Assembly (NCBI RefSeq): GCF_988243305.1
Contig: NZ_OZ547138.1
Length of the DNA stretch: 64,000 nucleotides
Source of the DNA: a plasmid
Reading direction: 5' to 3' (one strand)
Position numbers: made by a program. Positions 9,001 through 12,000 of the stretch are shown here, one piece after another (position 1 is the first letter of the stretch; each line of letters opens with the position of its first letter).

Positions 9001-12000
9001 AAGTCAGCGGAGAGTGGCTGCCGTTGTGGCTGTCCCGGTATTTCAGTGTAACAGGTGATTGCTGTGATCTATGCCCCATTCGGCTTTCGGTAAACCTGAA
9101 TACCCCACATGAAGAATGCGTGACAGCATGTTTCTGCCGCTGCCGTTCAGGCTGCATTCGCGTCCGTGCGCGAGTATAAAACCTTCATCCCGGAATATCT
9201 CTTCCACTTCTGAAGATTCGAGGGATGCCGGATGAATTAATGAAAATGCCACCGGTCTGAGCATTCTGCCCGTGGTGGAAAAGGTGTCTCTGGTACTGTT
9301 CAGTTGCAGGATATGACGTTTACCTGTTTGCGCACGGGAAAGTGTCTCACTCAGCAGCTGGTCGCTCCATGCGCACGTGCCAATCTGCCATCCCAGACTC
9401 CTGCACGCGGCAAGAGCCGAGCGGAAGCGGTACAGGTCGTATAATGCTGCGTTATTGCCACTTTCCAGCAGTGATTTCAGGGTGTTTGCTACCGGTATGT
9501 CTGAATTGGTGGCCAGCAGTTTTCGCAGGGTAGTGAACTCTTCAGCCATTCCTCTGAACTCGCGCATCTGACGGGCAGTGTCAAGCCAGTTCAGCAGGTA
9601 ACGCCGGCGACGCCGTTCGTTGTTTATGTTGTCCGGGGCGGTGGAGAGTGCTTCGAGCATATTCTCCAGTAACAGAATGACAGGGTTTTCCTGGGATAGA
9701 ATGGTCATAAAGGCGTCCTGAAAAAATGCCCGACAGCCGCTCTCCGTACACCCTCAGGTGTCACCGGTGCCGGGCATTGTGGAAACAGAAGGGAAAAAAA
9801 TCCCGGCCATAAAGGCCGGGAAAAGTCGTCAAATTAAGACAGCAATTTTCATGTCAACGCTCCGTCATCAGATACCAGGTGCAGGAGCAGGGCGATCCTC
9901 GACTCCGGCAGAGGCTGTGCATCAAGCCGGAGGAGGTACTGGTAACGCGCTTTTGTCAGCCAGAGGGTGGAGGCAGCATCCAGCTCCTCCCTGGCTGCCG
10001 GATTGAGCGCAGGATCCGGGTACACTTTCATCAAAGACTGAACGATATCCTCCCTGACGGTTTTGATTTCACCGGCCATTTTCACGAAGTCCAGAAAGGC
10101 ACTGTGACGGCGAAGGTGAGTGAAGCTGTGGCTTTCGGGGTCTGCTTTCAGGAAAAAGTAACCGGGAAACACGGCGTGTATATGTCGACGGTAACCACAG
10201 ACTTTATCCGTGCGGCGGACCTTTTTCAGTATCAGGGGTGTCCAGGGAAGGACGTGTTGTTCGGAAAGCCAGGAAAAGAGATGTTCGCGGTTTTTGCCGG
10301 CAGGGATGTACTGTGCCAGATACCAGTTGCGTTGATGTAATTCACTGATATTCAAAATCCGGAACGCTCCGCGAAAATCGATCCCCGCAGGGGGGCTTCG
10401 ATGTTGTTGTGAACGGCGAATACATAAAGCATGTGTCGGAAACAGCGGCTGACCCACGTTCAGCCTGGCCTGCAGTTCTGACAGGCACATGATTTACGCA
10501 CTCTTGTAAGCCTTGTGGACGGTTTCGAGGCGGGCGAAAACCGACAACTCCTGCAAACAGGATTAATGGCTGAAAAATATATTACATAAGGATGTATCTG
10601 TGGCAAGAGTGAAGATAAGCAGTTGAATAGATCGTTATATTTGATAAGTCAGCATATTATTCTGATTTGTGTGCGGTGTCTGGAGGATTAGATCGTTTAA
10701 AAATTTTATGCGATCTCTTCTACTAAAAATGATGAAAAACACAGCATAAAAGATCGTTTGTGAAATTGTTCATTTTTTTGACAAAGTTCAAAAAAACGAC
10801 GCTTTTTAGGGGGTTAAAGAGGGCAACTGTAACCCTGAGAAATCGTGTCGGCTTTTCAAAGCGGTGGAAAAGGGGTATATTGCGGATCGTTATGCAGTGG
10901 CTTTTGGGATCCTCGCGGTTCGGAAAGCCAGAAAACGGCAGAATGCGCCATAAGGCATTCAGGATGTATGGCAGAAACGACGGCAGTTTGCCGGGGCCGG
11001 AAGGCTGAAAAAAGTTTCAGAAGGCCATAAAGGAAAACCCCCACTATCTTTCCTCGAACTTTGGCGGGCTCGTGAAAGATAGTAGGGGCGTTCACAGAAT
11101 ACGGGATAAGTATATATGAAACCGTACCAGAGATTCAACCCTGTGCAGTGTATAAATACACGGCACAATCGCTCCGCCATAAGCGACAGCTTGTGGCAGG
11201 TCTGAAGAATACTTCATATAACGCAGTACACTGGAGTCAGTTAGCACCCGAAGAGCAGATCCGTTTCTGGGAAGACTATGAAGCGGGAAGGGCGACCACT
11301 TTCCTGGTTGAACCGGAAAGGAAGCGCACGAAGCGCCGTCGCGGTGAGCACTCCACCAAACCCAAATGCGAAAATCCGTCCTGGTATCGTCCGGAGCGCT
11401 ATAAGGCGCTGAGCGGGCAGCTCGGGCACGCCTACAACCGTCTGGTGAAAAAGGACCCGGTGACCGGCGAGCAGAGCCTGCGCATGCACATGTCTCTGCA
11501 TCCTTTTTACGTGCAGAAACGAACGTATGCTGGTCGCAAATATGCTTTCCGTCCGGAAAAACAACGCCTCCTCGATACCGTCTGGCCGGTTCTGGTCAGC
11601 TTCAGTGATGCGGTCACACATACCGTAGGCATGAGTGTTTCCCGTCTGGCCAGAGAAATCAGCCCGAAAGACAGCAAGGGGAAGGTTATTCCGGAACTGG
11701 AAGTGACGGTCTCCCGCCTTTCCCGTTTGCTGGCCGAACAGGTACGTTTTGGTGTGCTGGGTGTTTCAGAGGAAACCCTGTGGGACCGTGAAACCCGCCA
11801 GCGTCTGCCACGTTACGTCTGGATAACACCGGCAGGCTGGCAGATGCTGGGCGTCGACATGGTGAAACTTCACGAACAGCAGCAGAAGCGGTTGCGTGAA
11901 AGTGAAATCCGCCAGCAACTCATCCGGGAAGGCGTACTGCGTGAGGATGAAGATATCTCCGTACATGCGGCCAGAAAACGCTGGTATCTGCAGCGCAGTC

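Follow-up and report, generated by a model that had tools for sequence, protein, structure and literature searches.

Genetic organization of the locus

The window analysed here, i.e. the whole stretch of 64 kb, is an I-complex plasmid. An AT-rich spacer (GC of 26-37% across 10550-10850, against ~52% in the surroundings) lies between traB, which runs leftward, and repA, which runs rightward, and contains the array described below. The genes and control elements flanking this spacer were identified as follows:

9043-9708, downstream of traB: traC, placed from the annotation of close relatives
9849..10355, minus strand: traB, a NusG/RfaH-like transfer regulator of 168 aa counted from a TTG at 10355, with a Pfam NusG match; RefSeq annotation sometimes gives an alternative start at 10490
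11030..11180, plus strand: repZ/repA translational control region, with a pseudoknot and a stem-loop I bearing a TTGGCG loop

TraC had no Pfam match, and traA is absent from this IncK-type window. The traBC genes are essential positive transfer regulators, and conjugation in both IncI1 and IncB/O/K/Z plasmids requires them (PMC4288162, PMC10286972).

The start of the replicon proper is marked by the 11030..11180 control region, which matched the Rfam PK-repZ family at 173.9 bits. An antisense RNAI on the minus strand (CopA-like match at 11030-11113) and the inverted repeat I1 were found in this region, and the replicon is of the antisense-RNA-controlled type with an IncFII-like RepA.

Hidden small genes were considered and rejected: ORFs inside the array are only 26-35 aa long, and an 82-aa GTG ORF (10760-11008), which extends from the right edge of the array across the rep promoter, did not match Pfam and is interrupted in one relative, where 1 bp is deleted. 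No homologue of PapI, Lrp or Dam is encoded in the 64-kb window.

Identification of a phased five-site array

The sequence-only reading of this spacer had reported three copies of AGATCGTT at an exact 61-bp spacing, each with a Dam site and in an AT-rich context. These copies are real: they occupy 10629-10636, 10690-10697 and 10751-10758, all on the plus strand, with start-to-start distances of 61 and 61 bp and a GATC at 10630, 10691 and 10752, and the low GC content given above bears out the described context. No further copy occurs on either strand of the 64 kb. The three GATC motifs belong, however, to a conserved and evenly spaced row of five predicted Lrp sites, two of which had gone unnoticed: a match to the Lrp consensus at 10650-10664 and an inverted GATC box (GATC 10712, CGATCT, opposite orientation). 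The count of three thus holds for AGATCGTT but not for the array, and the 61-bp spacing, although exact, spans two steps of an underlying period of ~30.5-31 bp. The sites are:

10620..10636, plus strand: GATC box 1, with AGATCGTT at 10629 and GATC at 10630; 15-mer Lrp frame CAGTTGAATAGATCG, centre 10627
10650..10664, palindromic: Lrp consensus palindrome CAGCATATTATTCTG, centre 10657
10681..10697, plus strand: GATC box 2, with AGATCGTT at 10690 and GATC at 10691; frame centre 10688
10711..10725, minus strand: inverted GATC box 2b, CGATCT, GATC at 10712; frame centre 10718
10741..10758, plus strand: GATC box 3, with AGATCGTT at 10751 and GATC at 10752; frame CAGCATAAAAGATCG, centre 10749

Each GATC box was framed the way pap site 5 aligns to the Lrp consensus. 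The site centres (10627, 10657, 10688, 10718 and 10749) are then separated by steps of 30, 31, 30 and 31 bp, and all four array GATCs fall on the grid (per-site chance 0.068, ~2e-5 jointly, for a frame picked post hoc, i.e. after the data had been seen). A fourth GATCGTT had also been reported at 10885. It exists, but outside the array, at ~+1 of the predicted repA promoter, and it is out of register since it lies 133 bp, and not 122, from the third copy; a further GATC, missing from the earlier description, is found at 10908.

The palindrome CAGCATATTATTCTG agrees at 15/15 positions with the E. coli Lrp SELEX consensus YAGHAWATTWTDCTR (as cited in PMC5554404). It is the sole perfect match in the 64 kb, where 0.37 matches with at most one mismatch were expected; the other boxes reach just 9-11/15. 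A Dam target, GATC, is present in four of the five sites, within the (A)CGATC context typical of pap, and ACGATC is present on one strand in 4/5 of the nearby GATCs. The 64 kb contain 26 occurrences of GATCGT/ACGATC, and four of these cluster here within ~260 bp.

Tandem duplication, including iterons, was ruled out because Tandem Repeats Finder detected no repeat and the 61-bp units do not align outside the motif. We also regard it as very improbable that the array is a product of chance, i.e. neutral sequence in an AT-rich, H-NS-type spacer. The number of AGATCGTT copies is ordinary (at least three in 31/100 shuffles), AT-rich DNA gives many near-matches to the AT-rich Lrp consensus, and the box 3 16-mer ACGATCTTTTATGCTG has 75 scattered matches in 298 Gb of unrelated genomes, about the chance rate. 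That same background rate nevertheless gives ~1e-7 for ACGATCTTTTATGCTG in any one 300-bp stretch, and three copies of an 8-mer at equal spacing (any 8-mer, spacing 9-200) arose in just 1/200 dinucleotide-preserving shuffles, the sole other such triple of the real window being a true 8-bp tandem array at ~31293.

Conservation among related plasmids

The close-relative set comprised nine IncK/Z/I-gamma plasmids (85-100% identity). The earlier reading had made its proposal depend on conservation of the spacing in related plasmids, and 61/61 was indeed found in 8/9 of those sampled. All GATC columns (16/16) were invariant in the nine plasmids, compared with 159/246 background columns (P = 7e-4). 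Invariance in 9/9 plasmids extended to AATAGATCGTTA in box 1, GATCGT in box 2 and CAGCATAAAAGATCGTTTG in box 3, and additional AGATCGT copies have arisen in tandem at box 2 in three plasmids. The GATC of box 2b was invariant in the 9/9 close relatives and in 5/5 sequences of the deep alignment.

Beyond these relatives, the palindrome is found again in IncI1 (L002) and two further lineages (L003 and L012), though the intervening DNA has diverged, and a perfect Lrp match is present at the homologous place in 11/15 loci. Its symmetry has been preserved through paired changes (CAGCATATTATGCTG vs CAGAATATTATTCTG), and the IncI1 version CAGAATATTATTCTG fits a second published consensus, AGAATwwwATTCT, as well. 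In these three lineages, GATCs recur within 1 bp of positions -68, -28, +34 and +56 relative to the palindrome, the box-frame centres being at -62, -31, +31 and +62. The counterpart of box 1 is a GATC at -27/-28 from the palindrome centre in IncI1 and L003, and that of box 2 a GATC at +34 in the same two, whereas box 3 is absent from IncI1. The GATC of box 2b keeps its offset of +55/+56 in all four lineages, and in IncI1, L003 and L012 its minus strand reads AAAAGATC(G), i.e. the pap-box form. Sites 1 and 2 are 61-62 bp apart both in IncI1 and in a third lineage. Counting its IncI1 version, the module was retrieved from ~2,000 of 72,556 plasmid records (546 + 1,447), and it was missing from two more distant TraB lineages (~51% identity). 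Both the invariant GATC columns amid varying surroundings and the positions held within 1 bp across lineages with diverged spacers argue against chance.

This conservation also bears on the proposal, quite unlikely in our view, that the boxes are operators for a plasmid-encoded regulator (e.g. TraC, or the LuxR-type TraA of IncI1), the GATC being part of the recognition sequence and its methylation incidental. The conserved core AGATCGT is longer than GATC, the array adjoins the plasmid's own transfer-regulator genes, a DNA-binding role is possible for TraC given its lack of a Pfam match, and in pESBL TraA activates traB via a short upstream region (PMC5801416). However, this TraA-responsive region is close to traB and outside the array, and the boxes are kept in the IncK-type window despite the absence of traA. 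Moreover, boxes and palindrome remain unchanged while TraB diverges strongly (~65% identity in IncI1 and 56% in L012, whose RepA is at 72%) and while conjugation genes are generally poorly conserved between the IncI1 and IncB/O/K/Z clusters; a conserved host protein therefore fits better, and the palindrome perfectly matches the consensus of a host factor.

The main rival to Lrp as this host protein, although compatible with Lrp binding, is sequestration by SeqA, which we consider unlikely. The GATC cluster, hemimethylated once the plasmid has replicated or entered a recipient by conjugation, would be bound by SeqA, and both of the divergent promoters (of the tra regulators and of repA) would be silenced for a time, much as SeqA acts on oriC and the dnaA promoter. 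GATC density by itself is equalled by other 300-bp windows of the 64 kb and is notable only relative to the local GC of 26-37%: at ~30% GC, four GATCs in 123 bp, or seven in 146 bp in IncI1, are far more than expected. The reach of a SeqA dimer is ~31 bp, and pairs of GATCs within this distance and on the same helical face occur at 10691/10712 (21 bp) and 10885/10908 (23 bp), the latter pair being conserved at the predicted repA start; in IncI1, neighbours are 19, 22, 21 and 32 bp apart, i.e. about two or three helical turns. The IncI1-type lineages have additional conserved GATCs off the 31-bp grid (+13/15, +26 and +77), which an Lrp grid does not explain. On the other hand, the three AGATCGTT motifs, 61 bp apart, would not qualify on their own, and since SeqA requires GATC only, it leaves unexplained the invariant flanks (AGATCGT, CAGCATAAAAGATCGTTTG), the perfect palindrome, the 31-bp frame and the 17-nt identity to a pap Lrp site presented below.

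Resemblance to the pap switch

The pap switch, which governs phase variation of the P pilus in uropathogenic E. coli, comprises six Lrp sites, with GATC-prox in site 2 and GATC-dist in site 5, and operates with Dam, PapI and PapB. Box 3 (minus strand ACGATCTTTTATGCTGT) is an exact 17-nt match to the GATC-dist box, i.e. Lrp site 5, of the papI-papB intergenic region (L016 513-529), and no such identity is expected by chance in the window. Boxes 1-3 fit the pap box TAAAAGATCGTYTAAAT at 12-13/17 positions (pap box per PMC4417163), and box 3 has an A4 tract 5' of its GATC, a feature linked to slow Dam methylation (PMC4417163).

The two regions are also alike in layout. GATC targets with the (A)CGATC / AAAAGATCG context form part of Lrp sites, those of the plasmid being predicted from sequence. 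Under the same framing, pap sites 5 and 2 are exactly 3 x 31 bp apart, which gives a grid of ~31 bp in both. In both, a consensus or near-consensus Lrp site is located one 31-bp step from the promoter-proximal GATC box (box 1 in the plasmid, relative to its predicted leftward promoter; in pap, TAGAATTTTATTCTG, which matches at 14/15 positions and lies upstream of GATC-prox), a GATC box of opposite orientation follows two steps on the other side, and the -35 is found 20-21 bp past the proximal box (for pap, with a promoter placed by eye). AT-rich intergenic DNA between divergent genes is common to the two.

Several differences were observed. The plasmid has at least four GATC boxes, and more in IncI1, against two in pap; relative to the promoter, the boxes point the opposite way; the 17-nt match is displaced outward by one grid step from the place of site 5 in pap; and conjugation regulators, instead of fimbrial genes, lie downstream. 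Differential methylation and ON/OFF switching are hypothetical for the plasmid array. Furthermore, the window contains no homologue of PapI or PapB. PapI is said to raise the affinity of Lrp for ACGATC (Hernday and colleagues, in 2003). A tblastn search of the window with an approximate query found no PapI at the locus; when the real PapI of L016 was used as query, only 235 plasmids were retrieved, mostly of pESI type, such genes being rare on plasmids other than pESI-type megaplasmids, and plasmid PapI-like genes proved essentially confined to fimbria-bearing plasmids, including pESI.

Predicted flanking promoters and the probable target

Three predicted or conserved elements flank the array:

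10579..10606, minus strand: predicted sigma-70 promoter into the traB leader, from a consensus scan only; -35 TTGCCA, 16-nt spacer, -10 TAATAT
10778..10791, palindromic: conserved palindrome TTGAC-N4-TTCAA (TTGAC-N4-GTCAA in relatives)
10853..10911, plus strand: predicted repA promoter; -35 TTTTCA, -10 TATATT at 10876-10881

The array starts at least 21 bp upstream of the predicted leftward -35, which is invariant in relatives, the -10 being nearly so. At the same aligned position, TAATAT was found by eye in L012 and TAGAAT in L002; in L003, the promoter scanner chose another place. Such scans are weak, as they missed the genuine papBA promoter and were inconsistent between lineages, and the leftward promoter is only a candidate because it rests on a consensus match that the scanner places elsewhere in L003.

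The palindrome at 10778..10791, conserved in 5/5 sequences of alignment A2, resembles an FNR/CRP-family site. Its centre is 127.5-128.5 bp from that of the Lrp palindrome in four lineages, as read from coordinates. Conjugation of pESI is activated by FNR (PMC5013300).

On the rep side, the GATCs at 10885 and 10908 are invariant in the nine close relatives and do not fit the 31-bp grid, being 225 and ~250 bp away from the Lrp palindrome; IncI1 and L003 have rep-promoter-proximal GATCs at non-homologous positions. The array might serve replication, with Lrp/Dam or SeqA acting on the rightward repA promoter and coupling initiator synthesis to methylation or nutrients, but we judge this improbable. 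To our knowledge, the replicons of ColIb-P9 and pMU720, in their minimal form, function without this upstream DNA. Every lineage has GATCs at the rep promoter or close to it, distances are fixed in three lineages (~127.5 bp from the Lrp to the FNR-like palindrome, and thence ~103 bp to the rep start), and transposon insertions nearby doubled the copy number of pESBL (PMC4288162). Against a role in replication, these insertions left repZ mRNA unchanged (PMC4288162), the closest array site is ~105 bp upstream of the rep -35, and the known control of this family is post-transcriptional, through RNAI and the repY/repZ pseudoknot (PMC10286972). The position of the array makes the transfer-regulator operon (traB/traC) the likelier target.

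Comparison with known control regions of conjugation

In the work of Camacho and Casadesus of 2002 and 2005, Lrp and a GATC inside an Lrp site reportedly control traJ of the Salmonella virulence plasmid pSLT. There, an Lrp site with a GATC precedes the promoter of the master regulator of conjugation, Dam methylation would be expected to lower Lrp binding, thereby tying transfer to the hemimethylation generated by replication or transfer, and no PapI-type cofactor is known to be needed. Here, predicted Lrp/GATC sites lie upstream of traB, with a promoter that is a consensus prediction placed inconsistently across lineages. The two plasmids nevertheless belong to unrelated families (MOBF/MPF-F for the F-like pSLT, MOBP/MPF-I here), the regulators are TraJ in one and the NusG-like TraB plus TraC in the other, and pSLT has two Lrp sites and one GATC compared with a phased array of five sites and four GATCs.

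The Hft region of the IncI1 plasmid pESBL is cis-acting, and insertions or point changes in it raise transfer 20-fold via TraA and then TraB (Yamaichi et al. 2015; Poidevin et al. 2018). It occupies the same intergenic territory, from the tra regulators to repY/repZ, and its identity with the array was considered and rejected. When coordinates were mapped through traA and repY, Hft (pESBL 35394-35663, ~L002 2117-2386) adjoined traA and the IncI1 array was at L002 2649-2794; Hft is a different element, as it lies ~260 bp from the IncI1 array, which is on the rep-proximal side. Moreover, the IncK-type window has neither traA nor an Hft counterpart.

Conserved regulatory GATC clusters are likewise found in SeqA-bound regions (oriC, the dnaA promoter) and in OxyR/Dam switches (agn43, opvAB), where a protein senses the methylation state once the DNA has been replicated (PMC13337833). 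Unlike OxyR sites and the GATC-only requirement of SeqA, the array has flanks and a spacing that match Lrp and pap.

Proposed mechanism and its implications

The sequence-only reading had offered methylation-sensitive regulation and phased binding sites for a regulator as alternatives. The phased sites now appear as an array of predicted sites for host Lrp, given the consensus at 10650-10664 and the identity to pap site 5, and the data suggest that both proposals may apply together. We predict that the five-site array, with its period of ~30.5-31 bp, binds host Lrp. We further give an even chance to a mechanism in which competition between this binding and methylation by Dam would govern the tra regulatory operon. 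By analogy with pap and with traJ of pSLT, an Lrp oligomer would nucleate at the consensus site and wrap the neighbouring boxes. Methylation of a box by Dam would lower its affinity for Lrp, and Lrp, when bound, would block Dam. The hemimethylated DNA that would arise by replication or conjugative entry could then open a window of Lrp-Dam competition setting the expression state of the tra regulators. From sequence features, we infer Lrp binding, methylation sensitivity and the promoter acted upon, i.e. the predicted leftward promoter, which would drive the leader and the transfer-regulator genes traB and traC; the effect may be activation or repression.

A bolder version, which we hold to be doubtful, is a true pap-like epigenetic switch, in which host Lrp and Dam without PapI would set TraB/TraC expression and transfer competence cell by cell in I-complex plasmids (IncI1, I-gamma, K, B/O, Z). 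As the entering DNA would be hemimethylated on one defined strand, such a switch could be thrown ON at entry and decay over generations. If true, this would explain the long-known transient high-frequency transfer of new IncI transconjugants together with the low steady-state transfer.

In the literature searched, we found no paper linking Dam, SeqA or Lrp to IncI/IncK transfer, nor any methylome report on these plasmids. The same perfect Lrp site is present (L015) in pESI, a plasmid with tra genes of the IncI1 type; as a point against the mechanism, deletion of lrp caused no significant change in the pilV mRNA of this plasmid (LB, microaerobic, data not shown; PMC5013300).

I-complex plasmids are very common and among the main carriers of ESBL/AmpC genes in E. 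coli, Salmonella and Shigella. The known pieces of their transfer-timing control are TraA/B/C, the Hft region and FNR, and the authors of the pESBL studies call this control complicated and unresolved. A predicted and conserved array of Lrp/Dam sites immediately upstream of this regulatory operon offers a concrete and cheaply testable hypothesis. Even without Lrp binding or methylation sensitivity, the locus would be a strongly conserved and rigidly spaced regulatory region in need of another explanation. If the hypothesis is true, Lrp would link transfer to nutrient status, hemimethylation would link it to replication or DNA entry, and the adjacent FNR-like site might add a link to oxygen; pap-type epigenetic control would then cover, besides fimbriae and the traJ of F-like plasmids, a second and unrelated type of conjugation system.

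Genetic context and arrangement of the motif

The region belongs to an I-complex plasmid of the IncK/IncI-gamma/IncZ type, and the features surrounding the motifs are the following.

Left of the array, minus strand: traB, traC, then pil genes
10606-10601 (-35, TTGCCA) and 10584-10579 (-10, TAATAT), leftward: predicted promoter just left of the first motif (consensus scan)
10853-10881, right of the array: predicted repA promoter (consensus scan)
11030-11180: repZ-type pseudoknot control region and its antisense RNA (Rfam PK-repZ, 173.9 bits)
11116, right of the array: 29-codon leader ORF, followed by repA

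With rep to the right and traB/traC to the left, the motifs thus lie within the spacer separating divergent tra-regulator and rep genes. The traB product is NusG/RfaH-like (Pfam) and comprises 168 aa if its start is the TTG at 10355, as several relatives annotate. In IncI1 and IncB/O/K/Z plasmids, traBC are the essential positive transfer regulators (PMC4288162, PMC10286972, PMC5013300). The leftward promoter is a prediction only, whose placement differs between lineages, and the promoter scanner fails on the genuine papBA promoter too.

As the sequence-only reading had noticed, AGATCGTT occurs at 10629, 10690 and 10751 (hereafter boxes 1, 2 and 3), i.e. at 61-bp spacing, and the setting is indeed AT-rich (GC 26-37 % over 10550-10850 vs ~52 % around). 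All three copies are on the plus strand, and the 64-kb window has no other. The copy number alone is ordinary (at least three copies in 31 of 100 shuffles), unlike the arrangement: when every 8-mer was considered at spacings 9-200, any equally spaced triple arose just once in 200 dinucleotide-preserving shuffles. Tandem duplication of 61-bp units was ruled out, since the 61-bp intervals are not copies of each other, and the motif is therefore phased. A fourth GATCGTT is present at 10885 as claimed, but 133 bp from the third copy, not 122, and two further GATCs had been overlooked, at 10712 (CGATCT, opposite orientation; box 2b) and 10908.

The real window held one other equally spaced 8-mer triple, a genuine 8-bp tandem array near 31293. 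Its approximately nine units (AAGATAAC, 31293-31350), upstream of a small ParA-type Walker ATPase gene, lie in the spacer between this gene (30542-31168) and impB (31380-32651), both on the minus strand, and are probably a partition site or an operator.

Lrp-consensus palindrome and 31-bp periodicity

Between boxes 1 and 2, CAGCATATTATTCTG (10650-10664) matches the E. coli Lrp SELEX consensus YAGHAWATTWTDCTR (cited in PMC5554404) at 15 of 15 positions; no other site in the window matches perfectly. The corresponding sequence in relatives is CAGCATATTATGCTG or CAGAATATTATTCTG, with paired changes that keep the symmetry, and CAGAATATTATTCTG fits the other published Lrp consensus, AGAATwwwATTCT, as well. 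Of the 15 loci compared, 11 have a perfect match at the homologous place.

A 15-mer frame for the GATC box, picked after the data were seen, was obtained by aligning box 3 (CAGCATAAAAGATCG) to the consensus palindrome (CAGCATATTATGCTG) via their common left half. The framed centres fall at 10627, 10657 (palindrome), 10688, 10718 (inverted box) and 10749, in steps of 30, 31, 30 and 31 bp. The 61-bp spacing is therefore real but represents two periods of ~30.5 bp, with two interleaved sites at the exact midpoints. All four GATCs are on the grid; with a per-site chance of 0.068 (post hoc frame), the joint chance is therefore ~2e-5.

Comparison with pap

The plasmid box TAAAAGATCGTTT was compared with the pap GATC box TAAAAGATCGTYTAAAT on account of their likeness; the two pap GATCs lie in Lrp sites 2 and 5, and an A4 tract 5' of GATC slows Dam (PMC4417163). 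Read on the minus strand, box 3 (ACGATCTTTTATGCTGT, 10741-10757) is an exact 17-nt match to the GATC-dist box of the E. coli papI-papB intergenic region (L016). The box-3 16-mer turned up 75 times in a scan of 298 Gb of genomes; at the resulting rate of roughly 1e-7 per 300 bp, the likelihood of its matching here by chance is negligible. Of the five GATCs in this region, four have the form ACGATC on one strand, a sequence that Hernday et al. (2003) are reported to have identified as the one by which PapI strengthens Lrp binding.

Under the same framing, pap sites 5 and 2 are separated by exactly 93 bp (3 x 31); TAGAATTTTATTCTG, which matches the consensus at 14 of 15 positions, lies one step upstream of GATC-prox, and a 12/15 match one step downstream, between the papBA -35 and -10 as read by eye. 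By this common rule, pap and plasmid therefore have a common layout: a strong Lrp site with one GATC box a step closer to the promoter and another, of opposite orientation, two steps in the other direction, plus a -35 ~20-21 bp past the proximal box (the plasmid promoter being predicted). In contrast to pap, the plasmid has reversed box orientations relative to the promoter, more GATC boxes, and its 17-nt match one grid step beyond the position of pap site 5. Genes for PapI, Lrp or Dam were not found in the window.

The pESI-type Salmonella Infantis megaplasmids (records H130-H146), which share this perfect Lrp site (L015, 1142-1156) and have tra regulators of the IncI1 type, encode an unannotated PapI-like sequence (55 % identity over 57 aa), which presumably belongs to their fimbrial operons; cross-talk with the tra array is conceivable.

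Conservation of the array

The spacer is present in ~546 plasmid records at 85-100 % identity. In an alignment of nine plasmids sampled across this range, the GATCs at 10630, 10691, 10712, 10752, 10885 and 10908 are all invariant while the DNA between them diverges: 16 of 16 array GATC columns are invariant, vs 159 of 246 among all columns (P = 7e-4, hypergeometric; nine plasmids). The sequence-only reading had named a spacing not conserved in related plasmids, together with Dam-independent expression, as what would refute it; 61/61 is kept in eight of the nine; the lone exception carries a 7-bp insertion, itself one more AGATCGT, and an extra AGATCGT was gained at the same place in two further plasmids. 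Some IncK2/Z and IncI-gamma/K1 plasmids (L007, L009, L010; alignment columns 212-240) have two or three tandem AGATCGT heptamers plus AAGATCGATTC in place of the segment following box 2, which brings the number of local GATCs from 2 up to 3-4, with box 2b staying in position. Invariant GATCs in diverging DNA, kept spacing and gained AGATCGT show that selection acts on the boxes themselves.

Across deep lineages, i.e. IncI1-type (L002; pESI, L015; TraB ~65 % identical, traA present), L003 and L012 (a Salmonella plasmid; TraB 56 % and RepA 72 % identical), the spacer is barely alignable (61 % mean column identity). The Lrp palindrome recurs in every one of them. Relative to its centre, GATCs lie at -68/-69, -27/-28 and +34 in three lineages each and at +55/+56 in all four, giving frame centres of -62, -31, +31 and +62; in IncK-type, IncI1 and L003 spacers, sites 1 and 2 are 61-62 bp apart. 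The IncI1 version of the array occurs in 1,447 plasmid records, and the module is absent from two more distant TraB lineages (~51 % identity).

A further palindrome, TTGAC-N4-(G/T)TCAA (10778-10791; L002, 2838-2851; L003, 2862-2875; L012, 2080-2093), resembles an FNR/CRP-family site. Its centre and that of the Lrp palindrome are 127.5-128.5 bp apart in all four lineages; in three of them, it precedes the predicted repA start by ~103 bp. Conjugation of pESI is FNR-activated, with no FNR site mapped there (PMC5013300).

Further conserved GATCs of IncI1-type lineages (+13/15, +26, +77) do not fall on the 31-bp grid, and the Lrp grid does not account for them. SeqA sequestration, a serious alternative that is compatible with Lrp binding, would explain these as well as the GATC pair at the repA start, and would leave the conserved flanks, the palindrome and the pap identity unexplained. 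The members of this pair (10885-10911), invariant in the nine close relatives, lie one at the predicted repA transcription start and the other slightly downstream of it, 23 bp apart, a spacing that would suit SeqA; GATCs near the rep promoter also occur in IncI1 and L003, at other positions.

Probable leader of traB

Public records annotate traB as 642 bp from ATG 10490 or as 507 bp from TTG 10355. Because the IncI1 homologue starts at the position corresponding to 10355, 10356-10490 is probably a 5' leader. It holds a conserved AACGCTCCGCG...GATCC...GCAGTTCTGAC element, duplicated in IncI1 (one copy before traB, the other between the GATC array and Hft/traA). The leader preceding the tra-regulator genes contains, on the minus strand, a terminator-like hairpin followed by a T run, which the scanner detected in L002 (2420-2453, ahead of Hft/traA) and L003 (2494-2510, just before the traB start); homologous sequence was recognized by eye at ~10360-10385 of the window. 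The hairpin points to an attenuator; the NusG/RfaH-like TraB might allow read-through of it, with autoregulation possible. Between the traB leader and the predicted leftward promoter there is another hairpin, whose loop contains GGCGGG (window, 10518-10546; L002, 2586-2615; IncI1 form TTGGCGGG, 13-bp stem); this loop resembles the TTGGCG loop motif of replicon stem-loop I (11061-11066).

Proposed regulation

At the level of sequence, these comparisons establish a rigidly spaced, conserved array combining a consensus Lrp site with pap-type GATC boxes upstream of tra regulatory genes. Whether it acts as an Lrp-binding, Dam-sensitive regulatory array we consider an even call; a specific target promoter, feeding traB/traC, is proposed more tentatively. 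Host Lrp would nucleate at the palindrome and then fill the flanking boxes, Dam methylation of the boxes and Lrp binding would be mutually antagonistic, and hemimethylation after replication or conjugative entry would open a window to reset the state of the promoter feeding traB/traC. Regulation of pSLT traJ provides one model for such a mechanism, and pap provides another (PMC10073500, PMC13337833).

In a pESI lrp mutant, pilV mRNA did not change significantly (LB, microaerobic, data not shown; PMC5013300). This result still counts as a real negative against the Lrp reading, even though Lrp levels are low in rich medium and a switch confined to a subpopulation could escape a bulk assay. The Hft region, a genetic modulator of IncI1 transfer, is ~260 bp away from the array. 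Two other readings are less likely, namely that a plasmid-encoded protein, TraC or TraA, binds the array, and that the array controls repA.

In full-text literature searches, no paper was found that describes an effect of Dam, SeqA or Lrp on the transfer or replication of I-complex plasmids or that mentions this GATC cluster. Systems of this kind are well known (pap-family switches, pSLT traJ); an Lrp/Dam array in I-complex plasmids is a sequence-based prediction. If true, it would bring Lrp/Dam control to an unrelated, clinically important conjugation system, without PapI/PapB accessory proteins.
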